A DNA stretch of 64,000 nucleotides, from contig JBMYNT010000003.1 of assembly GCA_049598575.1 (NCBI GenBank), positions 1,155-65,154 on the forward strand. The letters are read 5' to 3'. Both the position numbers and the translations under genes were made by a program. The notes beneath the pieces were generated by a model. It saw only the letters and a list, made by a program, of their open reading frames with translations. It had not been told where the DNA came from and searched no databases. The number at the start of each line of letters is the position of its first letter. The stretch's first letter is position 1. The stretch is from Candidatus Poseidoniaceae archaeon (GTDB lineage Archaea; Thermoplasmatota; Poseidoniia; Poseidoniales; Poseidoniaceae). Positions 2,084 to 61,033 of this stretch are shown one piece after another.

Positions 2084-2174
2084 CGTGTGGGTCCAAGCAT
2101 TGTTGCATCAAATGTCGATTTGTCCTGCCTTGGAGGCGAGAGGTTCATCATGGAGAAGCACAAGAGTGGTTCAG

Positions 2175-2606
2175 ATGCTACCAGATACTCTCCAGAATTT
2201 GCCCCGTGATGAACGATACGCATATGCTCGTTTGCTTGCATACATGGCCCGTGTCGATGAAGAAATTACCGTGGATGAACTTGCTATGTTTGAACAACAA
2301 CTTGGCAAAGCTCTCCTTTCTCCGAACCAACGAGAAGTCCTCCGAAGAGCGCTCAAGAGTCCTCCAACACTTGAGGAATGCTTGGATGGACTTGGTCCTG
2401 AAGCAGGACGCCTCGCTCTTCGAGATGCTGTCCTCATGGCAGCCTCAGATGGTTCGGTCGACGATGATGAACTCGAAGTTCTAGAAGAAATCGCTGAACA
2501 CCTCGGACTTGTCCCAGACGCTGTTGAACAACTCATCGAATGGACAAAGGTCGGATACACTTGGATGCAAGACGGATACGATCTGTTGAATTCTCTTCAA
2601 GGTTGA
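2175..2606 (+). CDS. TerB-like (tellurite-resistance TerB / DjlA-N-like) domain protein
   Basis: Pattern YAYARLLAYMARVDEEITVDELAMFEQ … DAVLMAASDGSVDDDELEVLEEIAEHLGL is a typical TerB-like helix pair with acidic residues. Start chosen at the internal ATG (2175) to avoid a divergent overlap with the DUF2237 gene. The ORF as computed starts at 2085. Confidence 0.5.
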   Translation: MLPDTLQNLPRDERYAYARLLAYMARVDEEITVDELAMFEQQLGKALLSPNQREVLRRALKSPPTLEECLDGLGPEAGRLALRDAVLMAASDGSVDDDELEVLEEIAEHLGLVPDAVEQLIEWTKVGYTWMQDGYDLLNSLQG

Positions 2607-2612
2607 AGCCCT

Positions 2613-3062
2613 ATGTTTTGCGACGGCGTCGCTGATTTGGACGCTGCTGAGCGAGCGCGTTACGCCGATTTGCTCGTCCTCATTGCTGCAGCGGATGGTG
2701 AGCTTGTTCGAGAAGAAATTCAAGTTCTCGAGGGTTTCATGGGACGAGCCATGGTTCACCCAGAAGCAAGAACATCCATCCGCAAAGGATTGTACGATAC
2801 AAATCGACTTTCAAATCTGTTGAAGAATGCTGAATTGGAAACCCTTCGATATGTCCTTCGGGACGGTGCTTTACTCGCTGCTGCTGATGGTGAATACGAC
2901 CGTAGAGAATTACGCATTCTCAAGAAAATCGCTTCCACTGCAGACGTTGATGAAACCGAATTGAAAGCACTCTTCGATTGGGTTGCAAAAGGTTGGGAGT
3001 GGCATGCTAATGGCGTGGTACTCGCAAAGTTGTCCGCGCGAAACGATTCACCTTCAGAATGA
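2613..3062 (+). CDS. TerB-like domain protein (paralog of the preceding gene)
   Basis: Pattern LLVLIAAADGELVREEIQVLEGFM … DGALLAAADGEYDRRELRILKKIAS is the same TerB-like repeat architecture. It lies 7 nt downstream of the previous TerB-like gene. Confidence 0.5.
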   Translation: MFCDGVADLDAAERARYADLLVLIAAADGELVREEIQVLEGFMGRAMVHPEARTSIRKGLYDTNRLSNLLKNAELETLRYVLRDGALLAAADGEYDRRELRILKKIASTADVDETELKALFDWVAKGWEWHANGVVLAKLSARNDSPSE

Positions 3063-3100: not shown

Positions 3101-5122
3101 TTGAATACCCACTGGTTGGGGCGGACTATGCAAAACGGAGTTAGCGGCTGGTATGCAAGATTAGATCGATGCTTGGACAACAGACAAACACAAATCGAAA
3201 TGTGGCTCGATGCATGGGAAAACTCCCTCCGAACCCACCAACCTATCGCTGCTCTTCTCCCAGAAGATTGGCCAACACTTCCAGCAAATCTTCTGACCGA
3301 TCCAGGTCATGTTCTCGACCATCTCCTCGCACGTCACGATGCAGAATCCGATGGTCGCTCCCCGCGTGGAGCACACCCTACTCCTCCTCGTCTCGCTGAT
3401 TCGATCATCTCATCGGAAATGCTCGAGGCGACCATCCAACCGAAGGTCAAGAAACAAACGACCAATATGCACCTAGCAGACCTTCCTCCTGGCTTCCAAA
3501 AGCACATCAAGAAGCTGAACTTCCCGCCCAGCGAAGAAGAGGTAACCCTCGATGAGGACTCGCTTGAAGCCGTCAAGCGCAGCGAACGCACGAGCAGCGG
3601 TATTCCGCTCCCGTTTTCAGACATGTCTTGTGGAGGAGGCATTTTCCATGCACGTATGCTTCGAAAGCACAGTGAGTTGTTTGAAGGACAGAGTACTGAT
3701 CTACGCAAAGAAGACACGGAACGACTGTTCCGAGGATTCCAACTTGTTGACGTCGATGAGCTTGTCGTCCGTTCCACTCGAAAGCGATTGTTGCTTGAAG
3801 CGATTCGCCTGGGTCTTGTCTCCCTCGAAGGCGAGCAAGAAGGTAAACTCGCTCGGAACCTCGTTGAAACCATCCTCGAGCAAAACATCGTTTGCTCCGA
3901 TACGCTCCAAGAAGACTGGCCATGGGACCAAGCACCTCGTTTGATCATCGCTAACCCTCCTTGGCTGCGCATCAAAGATCGATTCCGTGGCATGGAAGAT
4001 GGTTCACAACGCCGCAAGGACTTGAGCGAAAAACTACGAAGCCTCTCTAATGAGGATGGCCCTCGTTTCTCGACCATGCGTGGAAACGTCAACCTCTACC
4101 GGCTGTTCATCGAGCGCGGTATGCAAGTTCTCTCAACCGATGGAAAAATGCGAATCGTTGCTCCTGACAGCCTTCTACGAGAACAATCCTCTCACCCATT
4201 GCGAAAACTCCTGGTTGAGAAGCACTCGTGGAACGAAGTTTGGGCTATTGAAGAAGCCAATCTCTTGTTCCCTGGCATGACCCAGGGCGTTGCCATTCTT
4301 GGCATCTCATCGACGCCAAATGGAACGGAATCTCTCAACATCATCGGCCCAGTAACTCGTTCAGATCTACGACGTGTTGGCTCTGGAATCTCATCACGCG
4401 TCCCATCGTTCTCACTTACACAGGAACAATGGGTGCAATGGGCAAGAAACACATGGGCGGTGCCTCGTTTACCTCGTGACCAAATTGAGCGAAAGAGCAT
4501 CCTCAAGATTCTTGACAGTATGTCCCAACTTCCACGACTTGGCGATCATGACCACTGGCTTGCAACGCAAGAACAAACGGTCAAGGTCCGTGTTGGAGAA
4601 ATCGATCAAACAGCCCATTCGAACAACATTTCCAGCTGGGATAAGGCAAAGTCATCTCGTCCATTCATCCGAGGTGTTCATTTCACAGAGGACGAAACCG
4701 GTAGTGTCTACATCCGACACCCAGCTTTCCGAAAGGACATCCCATCGCGTGCGAACGAACGACAACTGGCTATGTGGTCTGGAAAAGCTGAAGTCCAAAC
4801 ATACGGTCCTCGCCTCGCTTGCCAAGCCATCGTGAATGCCCACCAAGAGCGTCGACTACGTTGGGCTGTGATTCCGAAAGGATGCATCCTCGGAAACAGT
4901 GTGAACCATATCGAAATGAACCAAGCCATCCTCAACAGATTGAGTGCAGCCAAAGGCGATCTTCAGAAAGCATTGGAGTGGATGTGCGACCAACTCAACC
5001 AACGCGACTTAGACGATTGGGCAAAGGCCTGGTCCGCCAACAACAACGTCAACAATTACGAATTGGAAATGCTCCCTCTTCAACTAGGGCTTGAAACCGG
5101 TGTTGAAGAAGTCGCACAATGA
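3101..5122 (+). CDS. Gamma-class N6-adenine DNA methyltransferase (Eco57I/TaqI-like), stand-alone
   Basis: Motif X-like GAHPTPPRLADSII, motif I-like DMSCGGGIF, and motif IV IIANPPWLRIKDRF (NPPW), in gamma-class order X-I-IV. An NLYRLFIERG…MRIVAPDSLL segment follows NPPW as in the Eco57I family. About 380 aa follow as a candidate target-recognition domain. No endonuclease or HsdS/HsdR gene is adjacent. Confidence 0.75.
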   Translation: MNTHWLGRTMQNGVSGWYARLDRCLDNRQTQIEMWLDAWENSLRTHQPIAALLPEDWPTLPANLLTDPGHVLDHLLARHDAESDGRSPRGAHPTPPRLADSIISSEMLEATIQPKVKKQTTNMHLADLPPGFQKHIKKLNFPPSEEEVTLDEDSLEAVKRSERTSSGIPLPFSDMSCGGGIFHARMLRKHSELFEGQSTDLRKEDTERLFRGFQLVDVDELVVRSTRKRLLLEAIRLGLVSLEGEQEGKLARNLVETILEQNIVCSDTLQEDWPWDQAPRLIIANPPWLRIKDRFRGMEDGSQRRKDLSEKLRSLSNEDGPRFSTMRGNVNLYRLFIERGMQVLSTDGKMRIVAPDSLLREQSSHPLRKLLVEKHSWNEVWAIEEANLLFPGMTQGVAILGISSTPNGTESLNIIGPVTRSDLRRVGSGISSRVPSFSLTQEQWVQWARNTWAVPRLPRDQIERKSILKILDSMSQLPRLGDHDHWLATQEQTVKVRVGEIDQTAHSNNISSWDKAKSSRPFIRGVHFTEDETGSVYIRHPAFRKDIPSRANERQLAMWSGKAEVQTYGPRLACQAIVNAHQERRLRWAVIPKGCILGNSVNHIEMNQAILNRLSAAKGDLQKALEWMCDQLNQRDLDDWAKAWSANNNVNNYELEMLPLQLGLETGVEEVAQ

Positions 5123-6605: not shown

Positions 6606-7150
6606 ACATATTGAGCGAACCAACGCGACTCACGTTGTACGTTGATGGTTCGTGCGATGGGAATCAGAACGTTAACGCGACCACACCTGCGGGCTGGGGC
6701 GTAGTAGTTGTCGAAGGAGATTCAGGCCTTGGACGTGGTAGTGGAGAAATCCTGACAGAATTGTCAGGACCCGTTTCAACCTCGCCCGAAGATGAGGAAT
6801 TCATCGGAGCAGAAGTTGGTTCGAACAATACTGCTGAGCTCTCTGGACTCTTTGCAGCATTACGATGGCTATTAACCGAAGAGAATGAAGATCCTGTTTG
6901 CATTCGTCTCGATAGTCAATATGCGGGAAACATTGCAACTGGAGCGTGGAGGGCAAAAGCGAACAGAGAGTTAGCGGCACGAGTTCAATCGGTTTGGAAC
7001 GAAGTAGCCTCTCAACGAGAACTCTCTTGGAATCACGTTCGTGCACATCGTGGCCATCGGTGGAACGAGCGTGCTGACCATCTTGCAAAACGAGCAATGC
7101 GTCGAGAACGTCCCTTACCTCTCACGTTTTGGAAGCCTGGACAAGATTAA
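6602..7150 (+). CDS. rnhA: Ribonuclease HI
   Basis: Motifs LYVDGSC (Asp), NNTAELSGL (Glu), RLDSQYA (Asp) and HVRAHRGHRWNERADHLA (His/Asp) match the RNase H type 1 catalytic residues. Confidence 0.8.
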   Translation: MNILSEPTRLTLYVDGSCDGNQNVNATTPAGWGVVVVEGDSGLGRGSGEILTELSGPVSTSPEDEEFIGAEVGSNNTAELSGLFAALRWLLTEENEDPVCIRLDSQYAGNIATGAWRAKANRELAARVQSVWNEVASQRELSWNHVRAHRGHRWNERADHLAKRAMRRERPLPLTFWKPGQD

Positions 7151-8007
7151 GCAAGTCGTTCGTTCAACCACGCTTGCAAATCTTCTGCATACTCAGGCCG
7201 ACGTAATGCATGATCGATTTGCGACTTCAGCCATTCGAACGGTAAACCGGAATCATACCACGAAACAGAATCGGACAAGACGTGCGCATGAAGACGATCA
7301 GAATTCATCCAGTGTTTCATCAATGCAATCGATTGAAGTTCCCCGTATTCTTCCACGGAATAATGGTCGAGAAGTTCAAACGTATCCCCTGCAAACACAT
7401 ACCGACCACATAGGGCGTATGTGGAGGGAGCCTCTTCTTGGCCCGGTTTTTCTACAATGGAAACAATTCTTTCTTCGTCCATCGATACGATGCCATAGTT
7501 GCTCACGCGGTCTTTACCCACATTGTAGACTGATGCGCTTGGTTGGCCATGTTTCTCAAACAACTGGACAAGTTCCTTTGAAACGTTCGAAGGTTGAAAT
7601 TCAGTTAACGATGCGTGATTGGAAGTCAAGATGTTGTCTCCAAGCAACACCAGGAATGGTCCTGCAATGGCTTCCTTCGCCATCATGATGGCGTGACCAA
7701 GACCTTTCTGCTCATGTTGAGTGTGGAAGAAGACTTCGACCCCATCAAGCGGATTGAGATGAGCGTTGCCTTTTGCAAACATCGCATATGTTGCATTGAG
7801 ATTTTCTTGGAGAGGGGTGAAATCTTTTGCTGGCGAAGTGATGATGTGAATTCGGTCACACCCTGCATGTTTGGCTTCAAGAATGAGATGATGCATCACA
7901 GGAAGATCAACCAAGGGCAACAATTCCTTTGGAACATACGCGCTTGTTGGAAGCATTCGGGTACCCAAACCTGCGGCGACAATGACAGCATCACGAACCG
8001 TGCCCAT
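7147..8007 (-). CDS. UTP-glucose-1-phosphate uridylyltransferase-like sugar nucleotidyltransferase (GalU family)
   Basis: Motifs VIVAAGLGTRMLP…PKELLP, GLGHAIMMA, VVEKP and LLGDNI. Start set at the internal Met (MGTVRD) because the upstream 56 codons are non-conserved and overlap a divergent gene. Confidence 0.7.
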   Translation of the reverse strand: MGTVRDAVIVAAGLGTRMLPTSAYVPKELLPLVDLPVMHHLILEAKHAGCDRIHIITSPAKDFTPLQENLNATYAMFAKGNAHLNPLDGVEVFFHTQHEQKGLGHAIMMAKEAIAGPFLVLLGDNILTSNHASLTEFQPSNVSKELVQLFEKHGQPSASVYNVGKDRVSNYGIVSMDEERIVSIVEKPGQEEAPSTYALCGRYVFAGDTFELLDHYSVEEYGELQSIALMKHWMNSDRLHAHVLSDSVSWYDSGLPFEWLKSQIDHALRRPEYAEDLQAWLNERLA

Positions 8008-8059
8008 GCTGTTGCTTGCAAGCGACAGGCTATCAAGCGTACACCCACTCGTAGGATTA

Positions 8060-8473
8060 ATGGAGTCAAATCGTAAGGTGGTTCTTCTCGCCAGTGGCGT
8101 GATACTCCTTTCGTTTTCATTCTTTGAATTCCTTCCTGCTGGACCTTGGCTCGATGCTTCCTTCTCGAGAGGCATGAGCGGATTGCTCGGACTGTCGCTT
8201 CTCTATCTCAGTTGGTTTGAGTATGTGTTCAAGGAGGCTGGAGTTGTTCCAACCATCGCAAAATGGAAGCATCCTGAGTCCACTTGGAAGACCGTTGTGG
8301 CTGTAGGATTTTTCGTCCTTGGCTTATCCTGGGTTTCTGGGAACACAGGAGTTGGTGATGTTCTTCCTGAGCCTTCTGCAATGCTCCTCATGTTGATTGG
8401 TTTGCTCATCACCTACACTGGTTTCTACGCCTACTTGGTAACAAATGGACCGCTCAGGAATGAAGAGGAATGA
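8060..8473 (+). CDS. Hypothetical membrane protein
   Basis: Four to five hydrophobic helices. The start is uncertain: the ORF begins at 7982, and internal starts exist at 8060 and 8174. Confidence 0.3.
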   Translation: MESNRKVVLLASGVILLSFSFFEFLPAGPWLDASFSRGMSGLLGLSLLYLSWFEYVFKEAGVVPTIAKWKHPESTWKTVVAVGFFVLGLSWVSGNTGVGDVLPEPSAMLLMLIGLLITYTGFYAYLVTNGPLRNEEE

Positions 8474-29762: not shown

Positions 29763-31334
29763 TCAACTCGTTAAGGTCGGTACATCAAGCTCAGAGAATC
29801 GACGGACGCGTAGCAATTGACGAATTCGCTCAATGCGTTGCCGGCTTTCTTTTGGCAATACATTTGTTCGAACAATTCTGGAACCAAGAACGACCCCCTC
29901 ATCGTCACGAAGCGTCACTTGAACTTGCGCTGCACCCTTGAAACTACGATTCCAAGCAACATTGATCCAGAGAACGACTGTACGCTCGAGATATCGCGGT
30001 AGCCAACTCAAAACATCGTCATCAGAAGCATGCGTAAGTTCGATGGCTTTCGTTGGAGGGGGGCAGGGAGCCAATTCAAACCGGTGGTCAATGGACTGCG
30101 GCTCCCCTCCGGGAACTTGAACTTCGACACGAACGTGGGTAGCATCAAACGTCTGATTGTTGAGTGCAATAAAGAGGCTGCCTGACCCATCGTAACATGT
30201 CGAATCAAGTGAGATATCCATCCTCCACGGAGAGAGCAAAATCTCAGGCGCTCCAGAAAGGAAATCGTTCTGCAATCGTTCAAACAATCGGAAAGCTCCA
30301 GGCTGCCAAGCCCTTGCATGTTCAAGGGCGCGTTGGAGTGTTCGCCAATTGAAAAATTGAGTTTCAGAGAGAAGCGTTCGTTCGATAGCATCCGGCGGCA
30401 TGAAGTCACGTAATGAGTCAAGAACAACCTCATCGCTAATGATGGAATGAGCATTAAGATGCAAAAGGAAGAGAAGACGTTCTCTTGCCTGTATCGGGTC
30501 AGTCCCGGGAAGAATAGCATCATGAAACCGAGCCTCCCACTCAGCCCATTCGATTTGCGAATCCGGATCGAGATGCGATTGAAGCAATTGACCCAATGGA
30601 GAGCCTAATTGTGTTGGATGGTGCGTTGGTGCATAATGTATCAGCAATGGCATCGTATCTGCCTGAAGTCGGATGTAATAAGTCGTCAAAATAGAGTGAA
30701 TGCTCAAGCCAATTCCCGCAGTCATCGATGCCAGTAAGAGCAAATTCCATGCGACTGAACGAGGCGTAATGAGCATTGAAAGACACAACAACGTCAGAGA
30801 CGTGGTCGCAAGGAAGGCACTGATGTTGTTTTGTCGGCGTCCATCTCGAAGGCCTTCAAGGACTCGGTCCATCCCTGGTTGCGCTCTGAGCGTGTGTCGC
30901 TTTCCATCCCCAAATCCTCCCTGCTCACGAAGAGAAATCTTTGCTTCTACTGCAGACCATGTCGCTTCGCTTCCTGCGATAGGGGGGACGAATGCTGCAA
31001 GAGCCGGAATCAACCAAATAGCGAGGATGAACAACGGAGAAGTGTATGGCAAGATGGAAGGATCGATAACGAGCAAAACTGCAGTTATGGCGATACCAAA
31101 ACCGACGACGTTTCGAAACGCAAGGAAGAACGAGTTGTTGGCAATTTGTCCGCTTTTCATGCGGAAACGTTCGCTCTTGACCCAGGCTTCACGTGTACGT
31201 TCGAGAGGATCTTCGTTTCGAGCAAAGCCATGGCCGTAAGGATCTGGCAAGGACTTGATGGTTCGCCGGGTACGAGCAACGATGGATTCTTCCTCTGGCT
31301 CCATCTGACTCAGTCCTCTGTACGAACAGCCCAC
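29763..31334 (-). CDS. Hypothetical polytopic membrane protein
   Basis: Six or more hydrophobic helices in the N-terminal half and a soluble C-terminal domain. No family recognised. Confidence 0.4.
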   Translation of the reverse strand: MGCSYRGLSQMEPEEESIVARTRRTIKSLPDPYGHGFARNEDPLERTREAWVKSERFRMKSGQIANNSFFLAFRNVVGFGIAITAVLLVIDPSILPYTSPLFILAIWLIPALAAFVPPIAGSEATWSAVEAKISLREQGGFGDGKRHTLRAQPGMDRVLEGLRDGRRQNNISAFLATTSLTLLCLSMLITPRSVAWNLLLLASMTAGIGLSIHSILTTYYIRLQADTMPLLIHYAPTHHPTQLGSPLGQLLQSHLDPDSQIEWAEWEARFHDAILPGTDPIQARERLLFLLHLNAHSIISDEVVLDSLRDFMPPDAIERTLLSETQFFNWRTLQRALEHARAWQPGAFRLFERLQNDFLSGAPEILLSPWRMDISLDSTCYDGSGSLFIALNNQTFDATHVRVEVQVPGGEPQSIDHRFELAPCPPPTKAIELTHASDDDVLSWLPRYLERTVVLWINVAWNRSFKGAAQVQVTLRDDEGVVLGSRIVRTNVLPKESRQRIERIRQLLRVRRFSELDVPTLTS

Positions 31335-31483: not shown

Positions 31484-32617
31484 TTACTGTTGCTGAATTG
31501 CAGCAAAGTCATGCAACATCTGCTCGATTTGAATACGTCCTTGCGACGAGCGCCGAAGCCGTACATCGCAGTCTGATAATGCACTAAGAGCGAGCGTCAA
31601 TTGATCCTCTGGAAGATTGAGGCGCCCTCCAGTGAGAACCTGATGCGCTTGTTCAACAACATCCTCGGCTTCCAAACTCTGTTGTGTAATGATCTCATCA
31701 TAGATTCCCAAGGCGCCCTTGAGTTTTCTCGTGTTCTTGTAACCGTCTTTCTCCCAACGCCATTCGACAACTTGGCCTCGCAATGCAGATTCTATCATAC
31801 GTTGGACCTCATTGGTCGATATCATTGTAAGAAGACGGTGAAGATTACCTCGTTCACCAAGAAGACCTCGAAGTGCTAGAACTTCAGTTGTGAAGATGGC
31901 TTTTCGAAGATTCCCGTTCGAAATGTGAGCAATGTCTCCAAGAATGCCTCGAACCGGTTCAACGCCTGCAGAAGTGCACAACTCTGAGAGTTTGGACTCG
32001 ATTTGCTTGCGTGGGACGCCCGTAAGTCGGATGTGTTGTGTCCGACTACGAAGCGCATCGATCAATCGAGAAGGGGTTTGGGCTGTGAAAATGAATCGCG
32101 ATGTTTGGCTTGTTGCCTCCATCATACGGCGCAAGAGTGGTTGACGTTTGTGCCCGAGATAGTCAGCATCTTCAATAACGATGATGCGAGAAATATGGAC
32201 GTCGGTTTGACTCCCACGTTGGGATTCATGGCCTGCTGGCGCAACGTCGTCCGTAGCTACCTGCGAAAATGTTGAGTCAAACGCATCGAGAGATGTTCTG
32301 CTTGCGAGTGTGTCGCTTGAATCCTTTCCTCCAGGTCGCAAGAACGACTCAAAGGCAGCCATCGCACCAGCAGACTTCGCAAGATCCTTGGCTTGCAGAA
32401 CGTGGGTGGTTGAGCGCCACGAAGGGCCGAGAACCTGTCGGACAATGAGGCGCCATGCAGCGGTTTTTCCAGATCCAGGAGGGCCAGAAAGAAGAAGATG
32501 GGGTGGGTTGGCTTGGAGCGCTACGCGTTCGATGGTCTCGATGGTTGATCCCTCAAGCGCAAGGTCCGAAAAGCGACGAGGGGGGTGGGTCTCAAGCCAA
32601 CTCGCCATGCGTATCAA
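31484..32617 (-). CDS. Replication factor C small subunit-like AAA+ clamp-loader ATPase
   Basis: SWLETHPPRRFSD (PWVEKYRP-like), Walker A HLLLSGPPGSGKTA, DEAD-like IIVIEDADYL, and sensor 'ALRSRTQHIRL' (SRC-like). Carries an inserted roughly 70-aa acidic/Ser-rich segment. Confidence 0.7.
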   Translation of the reverse strand: MIRMASWLETHPPRRFSDLALEGSTIETIERVALQANPPHLLLSGPPGSGKTAAWRLIVRQVLGPSWRSTTHVLQAKDLAKSAGAMAAFESFLRPGGKDSSDTLASRTSLDAFDSTFSQVATDDVAPAGHESQRGSQTDVHISRIIVIEDADYLGHKRQPLLRRMMEATSQTSRFIFTAQTPSRLIDALRSRTQHIRLTGVPRKQIESKLSELCTSAGVEPVRGILGDIAHISNGNLRKAIFTTEVLALRGLLGERGNLHRLLTMISTNEVQRMIESALRGQVVEWRWEKDGYKNTRKLKGALGIYDEIITQQSLEAEDVVEQAHQVLTGGRLNLPEDQLTLALSALSDCDVRLRRSSQGRIQIEQMLHDFAAIQQQ

Positions 32618-32651: not shown

Positions 32652-32813
32652 TCACTCTGCCTTGAGTGTCTTCTTCTTTCGGTCTCCGCTGCTTCTACGG
32701 AGCTTCATGAAGATCTTGCAACCGCAATGGCTGCAGTGAATTCCGTTTCGCTCACGGTCAAAGCTTTCGATGGTGCCGCAAAGCGCACACTTGTAGTCTA
32801 CAAGTTCCGACAT
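32652..32813 (-). CDS. rpoP: DNA-directed RNA polymerase subunit P (Rpb12/RpoP-like zinc ribbon)
   Basis: YKCALCGTIESF…GIHCSHCGCKIFMKLRR matches the C-x2-C…C-x2-C…KI(I)F(M) pattern of RpoP. Start set at the internal Met, since the 23 upstream codons of the ORF are unlikely to be coding. Confidence 0.5.
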   Translation of the reverse strand: MSELVDYKCALCGTIESFDRERNGIHCSHCGCKIFMKLRRSSGDRKKKTLKAE

Positions 32814-32865: not shown

Positions 32866-33486
32866 TCAGAGACCGCCAACAAGCGGTCGCGTCATGCGAA
32901 TCTCAGTTGCCTGGGAAAGGTCTGTGTCTGCAATAGCGCTTGCAGCAACCATCTGGCCGTCGACAAACACCCAGTTGTTGGCTTCCTTTGCGCTAGAAGC
33001 GATTTCTTCCTTTGTCATTTCACAGACCGAATGGCCTGTCGCATCTGTAATTTGAACCGTGAACGTTTCGGATCCGCCAACAATGGACGGTACCAATCGC
33101 AAGACGTTGTCTTGGTTGAGTTCGGTGTTTGCAATGGTGGCAGCATCAACCATTTGGCCGTCAACGAAGAGCCAGTTGCCTTGGTTGGTTGTCAACTCAT
33201 TCGTAAGTTCCTGCTTCGTCATAGTCATGGCTTGGTCGCCTGCTTCGCTTGCGACAAGAACGGTGAAGGTCTCTGCTCCACCGACCATACCAGGGTTGAT
33301 TCGAATCTCGGTAGAATCGTTCAACTCGATGTTTTCGAGTTCTTCGACACTGACCATTTGTGAATCGACAAAGACCCATGTGTTTTCGTTTGCGGAGACC
33401 ATCTCAACGATGTCCTCTCGGGTCATGAGTTCTTGCTCGTGACCACTCTCTCGTGCTACGTGAACTGTGAATTTCTTATCCAACAT
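32866..33486 (-). CDS. Tandem triple beta-grasp (MoaD/ThiS/SAMP-like) protein; each unit ends in Gly-Gly (polyubiquitin-like arrangement)
   Basis: Three 67-68-aa units: …NTWVFVDSQMV…IRINPGMVGG | AETFTV…GNWLFVDGQMV…RLVPSIVGG | SETFTV…NNWVFVDGQMV…RMTRPLVGG-L-stop. The consensus 'xVxVdgqmV….….r..P..vGG' is typical of MoaD/ThiS/SAMP sulfur-carrier or ubiquitin-like modifiers. Confidence 0.6.
   Translation of the reverse strand: MLDKKFTVHVARESGHEQELMTREDIVEMVSANENTWVFVDSQMVSVEELENIELNDSTEIRINPGMVGGAETFTVLVASEAGDQAMTMTKQELTNELTTNQGNWLFVDGQMVDAATIANTELNQDNVLRLVPSIVGGSETFTVQITDATGHSVCEMTKEEIASSAKEANNWVFVDGQMVAASAIADTDLSQATEIRMTRPLVGGL
32872..33477 (-). repeat. Three head-to-tail about 201-204-nt coding repeats (beta-grasp units), diverged at DNA level
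   Basis: The protein-level triplication described above. Units are about 35-45% identical to each other, indicating an old duplication. Confidence 0.6.
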
Positions 33487-33574
33487 TTTTGTTCCTCGCA
33501 AACTGTGAATCTCTAGAGTATATGAACGCGCGGAATTCGGCATGTTCAAGGATGTTCTCGGAACAAGGAACATC

Positions 33575-34168
33575 ATGGGCGAAGATACACCTCTTGTCAT
33601 CGATGTTGTAGACAACGGTGGTCAATGGACACATCGTGAATGGAGGATGTTGAAGTATCTTAAAGTCGACACTCAAATTATTCCAAACGATACACCTATT
33701 GATCAACTCCGAGAATTGGATGGACTCATCCTCTCCGGAGGTGCTGCAAGGATAGGGCTGTCCGGTGAGTTGGGAAACTGTGCTGAATTCTTGAAACTCG
33801 AAATTCCAATCCTTGGCATATGCGCAGGCCACCAATTTATGGCTCGATTCTATGGCGGCGATGCCCGTGAATCACCAATCCCCGAATTTGGCGCTATGGA
33901 AATTCAACTTCACGATGGTGGGGGCAAAATCTTCGCCGGAACATCAGAAACCCAGACCGTATGGGAATCTCATAATGATGAAGTTCATGTCGTACCTGAA
34001 GGATTCTTTGTTACCGCAAGCAGTCCATCTTGTGAAGTACAAGGCATGGAGAACGATGCAGGAGATCGTTTCGGTTTGCAATTTCATCCTGAAGTCAACG
34101 ATTCAGAGTTCGGCAAAGTGATGTTCGAAAACTTTGTCGAAGTTTGTCGAAAAGCACGGGATGCCTAA
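33575..34168 (+). CDS. guaAA: GMP synthase [glutamine-hydrolysing] subunit A (class I glutamine amidotransferase)
   Basis: Motifs VIDVVDNGGQW, GLILSGG, and GICAGHQ (catalytic Cys), with a C-terminal H…E region. About 190 aa is typical of the archaeal split GuaA. The ORF as computed starts at 33542. Confidence 0.8.
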   Translation: MGEDTPLVIDVVDNGGQWTHREWRMLKYLKVDTQIIPNDTPIDQLRELDGLILSGGAARIGLSGELGNCAEFLKLEIPILGICAGHQFMARFYGGDARESPIPEFGAMEIQLHDGGGKIFAGTSETQTVWESHNDEVHVVPEGFFVTASSPSCEVQGMENDAGDRFGLQFHPEVNDSEFGKVMFENFVEVCRKARDA

Positions 34169-35541
34169 ATCTTGAGATTGGCTTGTCGAGCAAGTAGAAG
34201 CACTTGCATGGAATGCTCAAGCATGGCTGCATTCGCCATGGCTTGGTCAAGATTGGCTCCAACCGCGTAGGCTCCATGACCTCGAACTACAACACAGCGC
34301 ATGCCACCTTGTTGCAATGCTTCTGCGACTTGACGAAGGAATTCATCTGGAGCATCATCGTCAGGGTCGACAATGACGACCTTGCCAATGTGTTCTTTAC
34401 CAAGGACATCGATTGGTTGGACAAGAATGAGGTCCTTCTCACAACTTGCCGCTGTTGTGTATGGCCCTTGCATATGGATGCATGCTGCCGGACCACCTGT
34501 GGCAAGTGCTGCAACGGAAGCAAGGAGAACTTCGTGGACCTTCCATTCACCAATGGCGCCACGAGGAGGGTTTCCTCCAAGGGGACCTCCGACAATGCCT
34601 CGTTCGTCAAGACGAGCAAGCATGGTTGAATGGCGAGTGCTGATCATCAAGCCTGGCTCATCTGGATGGAGCATGGAAATAGCACCCATTGTTCCTTTGA
34701 CCAGTCCTTCACGACTGAGTTGGCGCCCCATTCGAGCGAAGTCGGCCACGATGTGTGGGGGAACGACAATGTTGTCGAGGACAACCGGCGGCATCGGTGT
34801 TTCTTCGATTTCTTCAATCACTTCGACTGCGCCGGTAAGGCTTCCACGTAGACGTTCGATTTCTGCTGTAAGTCGAGCGATTTCCATTTCTCGATCTGCG
34901 TCAACAGGGGGTTCTTCTTCGTGCTCTTCTTCAGAAACAGGTTCCTCAACCGGCGTTTCTTCTGAAGGATTGTCTTCCTGTGTAGGCTCAGCTGCAGTTG
35001 GTTCTGGAACCTCTTCTTCGATGACTGGAGGGGTTTCTGTTGCGGCCGCCTCTGAAGCAACTTCTTCAGTAGGAGGTACTGCTTCAGACGGCTCTTCCAC
35101 CACCTCAGGCTCTTCACTTGCCGGTTCATCTTGAACGGATTCTGATTCTTCTTGTACAGGTTCTGGGGACGTTTCTGAGACTTCCTCAATAACATGTTCT
35201 GCCTCTTCGATTGGTTCCTCCTCAACAGCAGGATGAGCGGATGGAGGTCCTTGAGGCGGACCTTTTGGAGGGCCAGAAGGAGGGCCGGTTGGAGGACCCG
35301 ATGGAGGACCTGTCGGCCCATCGCTTGGAGGACCTTGGGGCGGGCCTGACGGAGGATCTGTCGGAGGACCTGTCGGTCCTGATGGTGGACCTGAGGGTCC
35401 AGGTGGACCAGATGGCCCCGGTGATGGAGTCGTGTTTTCAATTCCTTCCATGGCACCAAATGCGCCATCAAGCATGGAGCCTAGAGCGGCTTCCTCTGCT
35501 TGTTCTCGTGCTTCTTCCGCCGAGGTTTTCTTTGCTGCCAT
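34165..35541 (-). CDS. Class II aldolase/adducin-domain protein with long disordered N-terminal extension (Gly-Pro-Pro repeats + acidic region)
   Basis: The C-terminal roughly 200 aa carry class II aldolase motifs (…MISTRHS…, EWKVHEVLL, ACIHMQGPY, VVVRGHGAYAVGANLDQAMANAAMLEHSMQVLLLA). The N-terminal roughly 250 aa are (PSGPP/GPPxGP)n followed by an E/P/V-rich acidic stretch. Confidence 0.6.
   Translation of the reverse strand: MAAKKTSAEEAREQAEEAALGSMLDGAFGAMEGIENTTPSPGPSGPPGPSGPPSGPTGPPTDPPSGPPQGPPSDGPTGPPSGPPTGPPSGPPKGPPQGPPSAHPAVEEEPIEEAEHVIEEVSETSPEPVQEESESVQDEPASEEPEVVEEPSEAVPPTEEVASEAAATETPPVIEEEVPEPTAAEPTQEDNPSEETPVEEPVSEEEHEEEPPVDADREMEIARLTAEIERLRGSLTGAVEVIEEIEETPMPPVVLDNIVVPPHIVADFARMGRQLSREGLVKGTMGAISMLHPDEPGLMISTRHSTMLARLDERGIVGGPLGGNPPRGAIGEWKVHEVLLASVAALATGGPAACIHMQGPYTTAASCEKDLILVQPIDVLGKEHIGKVVIVDPDDDAPDEFLRQVAEALQQGGMRCVVVRGHGAYAVGANLDQAMANAAMLEHSMQVLLLARQANLKI
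35242..35430 (-). repeat. Low-complexity coding repeat (GPPSGPPGPS…, degenerate 9-nt GGAGGACCT-like units)
   Basis: Visible directly in the DNA as reiterated ggaggacc(t/c)g… units. Encodes a collagen-like Gly-Pro-Pro stretch. Confidence 0.55.
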
Positions 35542-58655: not shown

Positions 58656-59660
58656 ATGAGCGGACGATTATATGTTGGAATTGACCTAGGAACGTTTCAG
58701 TCAACCATTGCTTCAAGCGCAGGTGCCATGCACTCTGTTGAAACTGTGGTTGGGCGACCAAAGGACCCTGTAGCACGTAACTTCCTCAAGCGTGATGTCC
58801 TCTTTGGTGCTGATGCACTCAAGAACAAACTCGCTTGCAACCTCTACCGCCCAATGGCAGCCGGTGTTGCCCAGGATGATGAAGCCAATCTTGCTGCTGC
58901 AAAGGCCTTCGTATCTCACCTCATCGAAACCGTTGACCCAGAAGAGTTCGACGAAGTATTTGGCGTCATTTGCTCCCCAAGTCACGTTTCATTTACCGAC
59001 AAAAGCAACCTCGTAGCAACCCTCCGTGGCCAAGTCAATGCAATCATGGTCGTTACTGAACCGTTTGCAACAGCCTTTGCAATCGGTGAAATCGGTGGCT
59101 CCATTGTCGTCGATATCGGCGCTGGTACGACCGACATTGCTCGAATCCACGGAACATTCCCAACCGATGAGGATCAAGTCACCATCCAGGAAGCAGGTGA
59201 TTGGCTCGATCTTGAACTAAAAAACCTCATCGCAAAGAAGTTCACTGGAGCGCAAATTACCAAGGACATGGTCCGAAAGTGGAAGGAAGAATCCTCATAC
59301 GTCGGCGGCGACGTTCGAACCGTTGAGGTTTCACTTTCCGTTGATGGTAAGAGCCAGAATGTCGACATTGGTGACCTCATTCAAGAGGCATGTGAACTCT
59401 TGATTCCTAAGGTCGGTAACGCCATCAAGCGCATCGTCGCTGAGGCAGACCCTGAGTACCAACCAGTTCTGCGAAACAACATCATTCTCTCCGGTGGAGG
59501 TTCCCTCATCGAAGGACTTGCAGAGCGGGTCGCTCGAGAAATCTCTGATATTGGTGATGTCAACGTCTGGTGCGTTGAAAACCCATTGGAAAAGGTCGCT
59601 GAAGGTGCACTCATGCTCGCAGGTGAAATGCCTGATGACATGTACACCTCCATCAACTGA
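58656..59660 (+). CDS. Actin-fold (ASKHA) ATPase, archaeal actin/MreB/ParM-like filament protein candidate
   Basis: Phosphate-1 motif VGIDLGT, phosphate-2 motif IVVDIGAGTTDIA, an adenosine-motif-like IILSGGGSLIEGL, and a connect-region GxP (ENPLEKVAEGA). About 335 aa. Confidence 0.65.
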   Translation: MSGRLYVGIDLGTFQSTIASSAGAMHSVETVVGRPKDPVARNFLKRDVLFGADALKNKLACNLYRPMAAGVAQDDEANLAAAKAFVSHLIETVDPEEFDEVFGVICSPSHVSFTDKSNLVATLRGQVNAIMVVTEPFATAFAIGEIGGSIVVDIGAGTTDIARIHGTFPTDEDQVTIQEAGDWLDLELKNLIAKKFTGAQITKDMVRKWKEESSYVGGDVRTVEVSLSVDGKSQNVDIGDLIQEACELLIPKVGNAIKRIVAEADPEYQPVLRNNIILSGGGSLIEGLAERVAREISDIGDVNVWCVENPLEKVAEGALMLAGEMPDDMYTSIN

Positions 59661-59752: not shown

Positions 59753-61033
59753 ATGACGCTTGGCGCTCCGAACCCAGATGCCTCACGAGGTTCAACAACC
59801 AGCTCTGGAAACGATAGAGCTGCTCTTGAAGGGATGCTGAAAAGTTACCCCGTTGATCAACTCGTTGAAGAGGTTTTGATCGCTTGGGATGAACTCGGTC
59901 GTCGCAACGATGAAGTTGTCACAATCAAGCAACGGTTACGAGTCTTGGAACTCGATCTCGCTGAGCGCGAAGACGAGGTTGCTCCTGAAATTCAACGCCT
60001 TCACGAATCCGAAGAGCAGTTGAAAGAGGCGGAAGCTCGTATTGTTCACCTTGATCGATTGTTAAACGATACTCGACAAGAGCTCGATGCCCAGGCATCC
60101 TCCTTGTCCAAGGAACAACAAGACGCGCTCCATGAAGAACTCGAACAATTGAGGGCGCTGAGTGTTTCACAGGATGAAGTCATTGCAGAAATGGAAGGTC
60201 GAATGGGGCTCATGGTTGAGGCTTTAGAAAAGGCCGCCGATGCAGGACTTACCTCGGTTACTGCGGATGAAGTTCGTTCTTTGAAACATCAGCTTGAAGA
60301 AAAATCTGCTCAATACGATGCAGAAGTTGCCGCCAACAATGCTTTGGAAGAAGAGCGACAACGTCTGCGTGATATCGCTGACCGGATGCGTGGACTCCTC
60401 GATGCTCGCGACAAGCGTCTTGCAGACCTTGAAGAGCAACTTGAACGCGTCATGCAGGGTCCACGCTCTGTTTCCGCTGAGCACGACTACTTGGTGGAGC
60501 AAATCGAAGAAATGAAGCGAAGGCTCCTCGAGCGAAATCGAGAATATGAGTCGTTGCGTCGACGTGAGCGACGTCTTCACACCGATGTATTCGAGCGCGA
60601 TGAGCGCATCCAACAGATGTCGCTCACCATTACCGATCTCGAGGCGGCTCTTACAGACCGTGTTGCTGAAATCCGTGAATTGGAATCCCAGAACGCTGTT
60701 GCTATGCAGGAGGTAACCAGTGTCCGTCGCGGTGAGCGAACGCGTGAAGTTGTCGGACGTGTCTTTGCTGATTCCCTCTCCTTGGTACGTGGTCATGATG
60801 CACGAGAGGCCAAGCGAGAGGCGTATGCGAACAGCCCTGATGTTGAACGTACACTTTCAACACCTGATGCCGATGATATGCGTAACCTTGCAGATGGTGG
60901 AACCATTGATTTGGGTGTTGAGGAATCTGAACTACCTCAAGGAATGGATGTGGATGATGTTCGCCCACCTTCACCTGGTGGTAGTGGAGATCCTGTTCTC
61001 TTTGAAGATGAATCAGAGAACGCTGATGAGTGA
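59753..61033 (+). CDS. Acidic coiled-coil protein (426 aa), hypothetical
   Basis: Long heptad-like E/R/L/Q-rich helices (…LRVLELDLAEREDEVAPEIQRLHESEEQLKEAEARIVHLDRLL…). Acidic C-terminal tail. Lies 90 nt downstream of the actin-like gene on the same strand. Confidence 0.45.
   Translation: MTLGAPNPDASRGSTTSSGNDRAALEGMLKSYPVDQLVEEVLIAWDELGRRNDEVVTIKQRLRVLELDLAEREDEVAPEIQRLHESEEQLKEAEARIVHLDRLLNDTRQELDAQASSLSKEQQDALHEELEQLRALSVSQDEVIAEMEGRMGLMVEALEKAADAGLTSVTADEVRSLKHQLEEKSAQYDAEVAANNALEEERQRLRDIADRMRGLLDARDKRLADLEEQLERVMQGPRSVSAEHDYLVEQIEEMKRRLLERNREYESLRRRERRLHTDVFERDERIQQMSLTITDLEAALTDRVAEIRELESQNAVAMQEVTSVRRGERTREVVGRVFADSLSLVRGHDAREAKREAYANSPDVERTLSTPDADDMRNLADGGTIDLGVEESELPQGMDVDDVRPPSPGGSGDPVLFEDESENADE

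Follow-up and report, generated by a model that had tools for sequence, protein, structure and literature searches.

A three-unit ubiquitin-like gene of marine Poseidoniaceae archaea, probably a prokaryotic counterpart of the polyubiquitin gene

Introduction

What is known of ubiquitin-like tagging in archaea comes from single-unit SAMPs, from Urm1-like proteins and from a small number of operons of eukaryotic type. In the SAMP system, with the activating enzyme (E1) UbaA and the protease HvJAMM1, and in the Caldiarchaeum pro-ubiquitin/Rpn11 system, a JAMM protease cuts the precursor exactly after Gly-Gly (PMC2948915, PMC6043591). Archaeal JAMM proteases make precise cuts after Gly-Gly both in precursors of ubiquitin-like proteins (Ubls) and in linear fusions, and archaeal Ubl precursors with C-terminal extensions are already known (PMC6043591). 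Here we describe a gene for three head-to-tail Ubl units in a 64-kb stretch of DNA (64,000 nucleotides of contig JBMYNT010000003.1, hereafter the window) from a marine archaeon of the Poseidoniaceae (Marine Group II). With modest confidence, we read this gene as encoding a polyprotein precursor of three different Ubl modifier units that is cleaved after each Gly-Gly, and it probably corresponds, in a prokaryote, to the polyubiquitin gene of eukaryotes.

Cleaved multi-Ubl precursors are regarded as a eukaryotic trait. Among eukaryotic tandem Ubls, ISG15 is made as a precursor with a C-terminal extension, and both ISG15 and FAT10 are conjugated intact, their inter-domain linkers not being Gly-Gly processing sites. 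Tandem Ubl proteins were predicted in prokaryotes in 2006 ("polyUbl," operon type 6e; Iyer et al., PMC1779556), and the bacterial Ubl3 of Bil/Bub operons was characterized in 2024 (bioRxiv 10.1101/2024.11.21.623966). The known bacterial three-domain Ubls act intact, forming Ca2+-dependent dimers and filaments (10.1101/2024.11.21.623966). A literature search returned no paper linking Poseidoniales with ubiquitin-like proteins; Grau-Bove et al. mention only a UCH deubiquitinase and RING domains, in one Marine Group II single-cell genome.

Results

Architecture of the three-unit gene

The gene is read from ATG to TGA on the minus strand, and its parts are as follows.

32866..33486 (minus strand): complete gene for the 206-aa three-unit ubiquitin-like protein, from the open reading frame (ORF) and its translation; TGA stop at 32866-32868
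33277..33486 (minus strand): unit 1, aa 1-70, C-terminal NPGMVGG; Gly-Gly codons 33277-33282
33073..33276 (minus strand): unit 2, aa 71-138, C-terminal PSIVGG; Gly-Gly codons 33073-33078
32872..33072 (minus strand): unit 3, aa 139-205, C-terminal RPLVGG; Gly-Gly codons 32872-32877
32869..32871 (minus strand): cap codon, Leu206, after the final Gly-Gly; residue variable among orthologues
33487..33541 (minus strand): 55-bp intergenic region, shared with a divergent class-I glutamine amidotransferase (GATase) gene, from sequence reading

Units 1, 2 and 3 are 70, 68 and 67 amino acids long, each closes with VGG, and each following unit begins without a spacer (GG/AETFTV at junction 1/2 and GG/SETFTV at junction 2/3). 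The translation thus bears out the first-pass annotation of this DNA, which had read three head-to-tail units ending in Gly-Gly plus one extra Leu. The three units share 38-44% identity and align without large gaps, and the E-values of unit-versus-unit BLASTP comparisons (6e-19, 1e-18 and 3e-17) are far beyond chance. Tandem Repeats Finder detected no DNA-level repeat in the gene, which means that the duplication of the units is old and cannot stem from collapse or expansion during assembly. A Shine-Dalgarno-like GAGG at 33494-33497 stands 7 nt 5' of the ATG at 33486 and, together with an A/T-rich TATA-like stretch near 33518-33526, provides possible ribosome-binding and promoter signals. An upstream TTG at 33615 opens a longer mechanical ORF; the ATG at 33486 has the GAGG, is used by most gene calls and gives 206 aa in most metagenome clusters.

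Conservation across Poseidoniales

A word-indexed search returned 137 relatives, nearly all of 206 aa and with names that point to Poseidoniaceae or Marine Group II, and a scan of one genome per species yielded 28 loci, in which complete copies have three units (one contig stops inside the gene). These loci lie in metagenome-assembled genomes (MAGs) labeled Poseidoniales, Poseidoniaceae, Euryarchaeota or Methanobacteriota, save for two obviously mis-binned contigs. An assembly artefact over single-domain orthologues, which had been raised at first pass as an objection, is excluded by the recurrence of the same three-unit architecture in the 28 species-representative MAGs and in more than 100 metagenome protein clusters; the orthologues are genuinely multi-unit. 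Two-unit variants also occur (P0096 and P0103; loci or contigs are labeled L, and protein relatives or clusters P, throughout), in the forms of unit 1 plus unit 3 and of unit 1 plus a unit 2/3 chimera. As regards a viral origin, IMG/VR holds no relative of the three-unit gene.

Across an alignment of 44 sequences the tails of unit 1 (N64-G70, within a stretch of residues 60-70 that does not vary) and of unit 3 (P201-G205) are invariant, as are V136 and G138, and unit 1 is the most conserved of the three. The residue that follows a junction varies (A/S/G/V/I at one, S/A/I at the other), as does the cap after the last Gly-Gly, which in orthologues is L, V, I, F, Q, IKLQ, IDSV, IESL, TGPV or LDEVSR. 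The terminal Gly-Gly before the cap is kept in orthologues with a single exception, cluster P0072 (DG). A fixed Gly-Gly with a variable, dispensable extension behind it is the textbook hallmark of Ubl precursors that undergo processing. Conservation of Gly-Gly in orthologues, on which the first-pass annotation had let its proposal depend, is therefore found together with a variable cap, the exceptions being P0072 and a clade with Ala-Gly at one junction that is taken up in the Discussion.

One locus, L004, is about 85% identical to the window at the nucleotide level over the GATase gene, unit 1 and the two genes downstream (rpoP and RFCs, described below); L004 2282-2698 and window 32866-33277, exactly from junction 1 to the stop codon, are unalignable at 40-50% identity. 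At the protein level, identity is 76% for unit 1, 28% for unit 2 and 44% for unit 3, with 91-96% for the flanking proteins, and junction 2 of the L004 allele is Ala-Gly. Because the divergence is confined to the stretch from junction 1 to the stop, units 2 and 3 appear to behave as an exchangeable or fast-evolving cassette bounded at a Gly-Gly junction; in L004 itself they look like a swapped or hyper-divergent cassette.

Predicted fold and family assignment of the units

AlphaFold2, run on the full protein with the 44-sequence family alignment, gave a model with a mean predicted local distance difference test score (pLDDT) of 84.9 and three beta-beta-alpha-beta-beta-(short helix)-beta domains, and the model of a single unit (pLDDT 90.9) has the same beta-grasp topology once. 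Low confidence in the full model is confined to the two junctions and the last four residues, and the predicted template modeling score (pTM) is 0.42; no fixed inter-domain packing is therefore predicted, and in the model the three domains look like beads on a string. Foldseek searches with the whole model gave ISG15 (E 4.7e-6) and linear di-ubiquitin (E about 5e-6) as top matches among solved Ubl structures, with ubiquitin and SUMO also among the best; identity to ISG15/FAT10-type proteins in the structural alignments was 10-17%. Models and structural matches together support the beta-grasp fold that had been proposed for the units from sequence.

The more specific assignment of the units to the ThiS/MoaD/SAMP group, made in the same first-pass annotation, was not borne out. 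All three units do have the C-terminal Gly-Gly of that group (as VGG), but Pfam matches were all sub-threshold: ThiS (PF02597) reached 18.8 bits against a cut-off of 22.5 (E 0.0024) and Lambda_tail_I an E-value of 0.0067, and the Pfam families matched by the protein even at E <= 10 did not include ubiquitin. Single units scored at most 13.7 bits against ThiS or had no match, and one of 38 single-unit relatives touched ThiS, at E 0.097. NCBIfam SAMP1 (NF041918) scored 18.6 bits against a cut-off of 60 (E 0.0021), the PADLOC defence models gave one weak, unrelated match only (PDC-M16B, E 5.9e-4, 16.6 bits), and PHROGs gave nothing meaningful for the protein. Using phmmer against PDB sequences, the junction region fell in register with polyubiquitin at about 7 bits for each stretch; di-ubiquitin was matched at E about 0.06, and the very low E-values for 9x-ubiquitin chains are inflated by repeat-on-repeat summation. 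A single-unit profile against the PDB recovered no Ubl, ubiquitin included. When the wider-family profile (below) was aligned by hhalign with single sequences, the alignments always reached the terminal Gly-Gly, with the following values.

Ubiquitin: probability 62%, E 7.5e-5
E. coli MoaD: probability 52%, E 1.5e-4
E. coli ThiS: probability 45%, E 2.2e-4

The units belong to the ubiquitin-like superfamily and lie outside the ThiS/MoaD/SAMP and ubiquitin families as currently defined. Judged by these profile comparisons, they form a separate family of ~68 aa with the end motif P-x-L-V-G-G, about equidistant from ubiquitin, MoaD and ThiS. This family has no model in the four libraries searched (Pfam, NCBIfam, PADLOC and PHROG) and is not covered in the papers found.

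The wider family and its unit number

A profile built from the units of this gene family only was scored against 1.84 billion representative proteins and gave 155 matches at E <= 1e-3. The matches form a coherent family whose units are ~66-75 aa long and conform to ...V-x-I-x-D-x-x-G-H...W-V-F-V-D-x-x-L-V...V-R-L-x-P-x-L-V-G-G; in many members a single unit stops right at Gly-Gly, and in others 1-10 extra residues follow. Every member keeps the last Gly and nearly every one the penultimate Gly, with Ala-Gly and Phe-Gly as exceptions, so that the penultimate glycine is apparently not essential in the family. In P0122, an abundant relative (144 aa, a 58-member cluster), both units end in Ala-Gly (ALQAG/KDSNDE... 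at the junction and ALLAG-Q at the C terminus); P0327, a member of this cluster, is present on 65 contigs, many of them from Tara Oceans.

Multi-unit relatives have two units in P0122, P0124 and P0155 and three in P0121. A rough neighbor-joining tree of units, computed from pairwise identities, groups the units within each of four multi-unit relatives (P0121, P0122, P0124 and P0129), and unit duplication thus appears to have occurred several times independently. The end motif is kept at the internal junctions of these proteins, as LVGG or LLGG in P0121, P0124 and P0129 and as LQAG in P0122. The units of P0121 are 71-89% identical, as in a young polyubiquitin gene, and lie at the same Ubl-rpoP-RFCs locus (L036); at the corresponding locus of another Poseidoniales lineage (L039) there is one 69-aa unit ending in Gly-Gly plus Phe. 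Unit number at the Ubl-rpoP-RFCs locus is therefore one (L039), three near-identical (L036) or three diverged (the window and the 28 species representatives).

A further group of proteins of 307-466 aa (P0300, at L054 10001-11242, and P0129, P0203, P0173 and P0183) has one or two units joined through Gly-Gly to a domain of ~230-300 aa. This partner domain has no significant Pfam match, and the arrangement recalls ubiquitin-fusion precursor genes.

Association of the family with E1 and JAMM genes

Some relatives are fused to an E1. In P0127, P0343/P0392 and P0344, two units and their Gly-Gly are followed directly by a ThiF domain; in P0161 a GGGGSGG linker separates a single unit from ThiF, and P0296 is also a Ubl-ThiF fusion. 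The unit profile finds these fusions (P0127 at E 3.8e-30, P0161 at E 2.2e-13), ThiF was confirmed in both of these proteins, and some members of the E1-fusion clusters are labeled at NCBI as Candidatus Poseidoniales or Candidatus Poseidoniaceae, the latter in MAGs. A Ubl gene adjoins a ThiF gene in L041, L042, L044 and L054. The associated E1s are minimal (~200 aa), with PRTRC-type ThiF as the closest model, below its cut-off, and in Pfam they match ThiF only, with no rhodanese domain. In a unit fused through Gly-Gly to its own E1, the C-terminal glycine would need to be freed by cleavage before adenylation, and cleavage after Gly-Gly is thus probably part of how the family works.

In five such loci (L033, L043, L044, L050 and L054) the gene after the E1 encodes a 131-199-aa protein with the invariant stretch W-V-H-T-H-P-x3-A-Y-W-S-x-T-D, an intact JAMM motif (H-x-H-x7-S-x2-D). 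Prok-JAB was the sole Pfam family matched, in five of five proteins and each time below threshold; the best PDB match was AMSH-LP, at the motif, with a weak E-value of 0.36. At L044 a separate 94-aa Ubl, with ten residues after its Gly-Gly, is encoded by a gene that overlaps the E1 start; the E1 and the JAMM-like protein follow. At L054, a contig of 1.66 Mb, two units fused to a ~300-aa domain are followed by ThiF and then by the JAMM-like gene. The linkage to E1 and JAMM holds at the level of the family only; the gene in the window is without it. The first-pass annotation had held that a tandem precursor would need both enzymes, and the family does appear to be functionally tied to both elsewhere.

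The Ubl-E1-JAMM clusters of Poseidoniales lie downstream, by a few genes, of a gene for a large T7-like single-subunit RNA polymerase (~1290 aa, Pfam RNA_pol PF00940; L033 1-2053, L043 1-1165, L044 3627-7496 and L054 3165-7025). Such a gene is unexpected in an archaeal chromosome, and it may mark an integrated element. In the Ubl-E1 fusion clusters there is always, 3' of the JAMM-like gene, a conserved 81-aa protein (L033 9523-9768, L043 5714-5959 and L050 11628-11873). Nothing in Pfam matches it; to judge by its sequence it may be small and helical or of the ribbon-helix-helix type, perhaps with a regulatory role.

Two phage-like contigs, L041 (8001-9283) and L042 (8001-9294), carry a 70-71-aa Ubl ending in LVGG, then Prok-JAB, then ThiF; in these triads Prok-JAB stands in the precomputed Pfam annotation without a weak flag. 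Other genes on the two contigs encode dUTPase, ribonucleotide reductase, RecA, RNA ligase, DNA polymerase A, a sigma-70-type factor and RecU. The contigs are of 141 kb and 70 kb, and each of the compact triads immediately follows a very large ORF (1414 aa and 720 aa); their JAB proteins match PHROG tail-protein families. In cultured phages the phage-type Ubl had no match, and the E1 had one weak, partial match, in Acinetobacter phage ME3.

Genomic neighborhood

The gene order is GATase<-/->Ubl-rpoP-RFCs, with the GATase gene transcribed divergently and with rpoP, a replication factor C small-subunit-like gene (RFCs) and a tRNA-Arg gene co-oriented downstream of the Ubl gene. The neighboring features are the following.

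32652..32813 (minus strand): RNA polymerase subunit P (Zn ribbon); Zn_ribbon_RPAB4 E 6e-5, 23.1 bits, just below the 24-bit cut-off
31484..32608 (minus strand): replication factor C small-subunit-like AAA+ protein; AAA, RCF1-5-like_lid and Rep_fac_C matches
29763-31304 (minus strand): conserved 513-aa protein, no Pfam match; N-terminal half apparently with membrane segments

The rpoP gene starts 52 bp past the Ubl stop, and the intervening minus strand has no terminator-like site; the sigma-70 model used in a promoter scan is not applicable to archaea. In 32 of 34 compared loci rpoP stands directly after the Ubl gene, the exceptions being L031, where the sequence is cut off, and L024, which is disrupted. 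The Ubl-rpoP-RFCs synteny extends over L001-L032, L036 and L039, the whole string being present in every locus that extends far enough. The 513-aa protein is always 3' of RFCs in this string, with 80-97% identity across loci.

A Pfam scan of the window took in each of its 50 larger ORFs, and these are housekeeping genes of archaeal type, including those for transcription factor B, topoisomerase VI A/B, FtsY, prefoldin, L18Ae, geranylgeranylglyceryl phosphate (GGGP) synthase and others. A regular-expression match to a JAMM-like motif at 7147-8175 proved to be a nucleotidyl transferase. Several other genes in the window are recorded here in their own right. A class II aldolase/adducin-domain protein (34165-35541, minus strand) has an N-terminal extension of ~260 aa made of Pro/Gly/Ser-rich repeats (PGPSGPPGPSGPPSGPTGPP...) and then a highly acidic Glu/Pro/Val-rich stretch. 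An MreB/actin-like protein (58656-59660, plus strand) shows weak matches to the archaeal Salactin and Volactin families, and the adjoining 426-aa ORF at 59753-61033 has no Pfam match. At 2112-3062 and 3128-5122 (both plus strand), two adjacent TerB-domain genes come before one for a 664-aa protein that has an Eco57I-type restriction-modification methylase domain.

Discussion

If the gene is a polyprotein precursor, the three units would be synthesized in one chain, like beads on a string, and their gene would be expressed within a housekeeping string that includes rpoP and RFCs. A JAMM/MPN+ metalloprotease would then cut after each Gly-Gly (or Ala-Gly) and remove the variable C-terminal cap, yielding three free units of ~7.5 kDa with an exposed C-terminal glycine; a minimal ThiF-type E1 would adenylate this glycine, and the activated unit would be joined to target proteins or, less likely, act as a sulfur carrier. 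A more far-reaching version can be put forward only tentatively: Poseidoniaceae may use a true polyubiquitin-type gene, in which one housekeeping transcript gives three different tags, released by JAMM and activated by a minimal E1 without conjugating enzyme (E2) or ligase (E3), with poly-unit precursors having arisen several times, whole units being swapped at Gly-Gly junctions, and phage-like contigs carrying Ubl-JAB-E1 sets of their own.

Several points weigh against the precursor reading. The units are no more than 38-44% identical and each is conserved as its own orthologue, which fits a single protein with specialized domains, and a 208-aa clade (~50% identity) has Ile-Val-Ala-Gly and not Gly-Gly at junction 2. 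The 50 window ORFs scanned include no ThiF/E1, UBC-like or JAB/MPN gene, in line with what had been noted at first pass for E1 and JAMM. A comparison of the contig records, whole-genome shotgun (WGS) prefixes and accessions that were looked up did not place the E1/JAMM cluster and the three-unit gene in one genome, the WGS prefixes and accession ranges of the E1 fusions and of the three-unit gene not coinciding; the E1 clusters carry a Ubl of their own, so that a different activating enzyme may serve the three-unit product. In sequence the units resemble ubiquitin, MoaD and ThiS only weakly (hhalign probabilities of 45-62%). It is we who infer cleavage at the internal junctions, as well as the E1 and protease that act on this product and its targets. 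In bacteria, the three-domain Ubls known so far work uncut (10.1101/2024.11.21.623966). The objection from junction 2 is weakened by P0122, where Ala-Gly-Gln at a true C terminus makes Ala-Gly look like an accepted end motif.

The same points feed an alternative that we consider rather unlikely but take seriously, namely that the protein is an intact three-domain Ubl from which only the cap is removed, with only the last Gly-Gly activated and the whole 22-kDa protein conjugated or oligomerized, as in ISG15, FAT10 and the Bil/Bub Ubl3; the internal Gly-Gly would be flexible linkers left from duplication. The best structural matches of the whole model being two-domain Ubls (ISG15), the commonness of bacterial three-beta-grasp Ubls that act intact as dimers or filaments (10.1101/2024.11.21.623966), the distinctness and individual conservation of the three units, the tolerance of Ala-Gly at junction 2 and the failure of contig-record and accession comparison to place E1/JAMM in the same genome all agree with it. 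It leaves less room for the full tail motif P-x-x-V-G-G at internal ends, which is kept despite ~40% identity and recurs in independently duplicated relatives, and for a unit number that varies at one locus (one, two or three). Nor does it sit well with a model that predicts no packing of the domains against each other (pTM 0.42, pLDDT low at the junctions only), with relatives in which a unit is fused through Gly-Gly to an E1 and would need its C-terminal glycine freed before adenylation, or with a PADLOC search that gives only the weak, unrelated PDC-M16B match.

That the units, released or not, are sulfur carriers, thiocarboxylated at the C-terminal glycine by an E1-like enzyme for cofactor or tRNA thiolation in the manner of ThiS, MoaD, TtuB, Urm1 and SAMP2, seems improbable to us. 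Weak in-register matches to ThiS (E 0.0024) and SAMP1 (E 0.0021), and to MoaD/ThiS by hhalign, point in this direction, as do nearby tRNA-modification genes (Trm5/TYW2 in the window, and Taw1 beside an E1 cluster), but the Taw1 gene is on the opposite strand, and there is no MoaE, ThiG, TtuA/NcsA or rhodanese among the 50 window ORFs scanned or in the gene tables of those E1/JAMM loci that were looked up. The minimal associated E1 (~200 aa), which lacks a rhodanese domain match, is a further difficulty, and phage-borne Ubl-JAB-E1 triads and multi-copy precursors are atypical of cofactor pathways. A non-conjugated adaptor or scaffold for the transcription and replication machinery whose genes lie downstream (RpoP, RFC), with beta-grasp domains as interaction modules and Gly-Gly without a chemical role, would account for the strict conservation of the Ubl-rpoP-RFCs string across Poseidoniales and for a window free of E1 and JAMM genes; we regard it as very improbable, since it leaves unexplained the invariant Gly-Gly with its variable cap, the members that end exactly at Gly-Gly, and the E1 fusions and JAMM adjacency of relatives.

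What is new here is an archaeal gene in a housekeeping position with a complete polyubiquitin-like signature at every unit end, and a Ubl family outside the four libraries searched, with recurrent independent multiplication of units, fusions to E1 and members on phage-like contigs. The full processing signature, together with the family's ties to E1 and JAMM, makes an independent prokaryotic polyubiquitin strategy directly testable. If the more far-reaching version is true, the polyubiquitin strategy would have evolved convergently outside eukaryotes, perhaps under the influence of virus-host conflict. Poseidoniaceae are among the most abundant planktonic archaea. The Ubl family is found widely in a marine archaeal order that is ecologically dominant, and it provides a way into the search for tagged proteins in uncultured Marine Group II archaea.

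Comparison with known systems

The SAMP and Caldiarchaeum systems share with this family an archaeal beta-grasp protein, a C-terminal Gly-Gly, an E1-like activator and a JAMM protease. They differ in that their modifiers are single-unit and belong to the ThiS/MoaD or ubiquitin families, whose thresholds the units described here do not reach, and here the linked E1, at ~200 aa, is a minimal ThiF for which the PRTRC type is the closest model, below cut-off. Bil/Bub Ubls of three beta-grasp domains form Ca2+-dependent dimers or filaments; the protein described here has three domains, and its model shows no packing between them (pTM 0.42). Bil/Bub Ubls are bacterial and lie inside E1/E2/deubiquitinase operons, often in defence contexts, whereas the present gene is archaeal, lies in a housekeeping string without such enzymes, and has the full Gly-Gly tail motif at every unit end. 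ISG15, the best Foldseek match, resembles it in its tandem beta-grasp domains and terminal Gly-Gly; ISG15 and FAT10 are eukaryotic and unrelated in sequence to these units.

The first-pass annotation had likened the gene to eukaryotic polyubiquitin precursors (UBB, UBC and UBI4), and this comparison stands in part. It does not extend to the units themselves, which are three different sequences (38-44% identity) and not near-identical copies, each with its own orthologue, outside the ubiquitin Pfam family and with Ala-Gly at junction 2 in one clade. Nor does it extend to the enzymes, the expected protease being a JAMM metalloprotease and not a cysteine deubiquitinase, with no E2/E3 genes detected and with processing that here is proposed from sequence. 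It holds for the Gly-Gly junctions and the cap: as in polyubiquitin, beta-grasp units that end in Gly-Gly are arranged head to tail, the next unit begins at once, the last is followed by a variable cap, and copy number varies between lineages.

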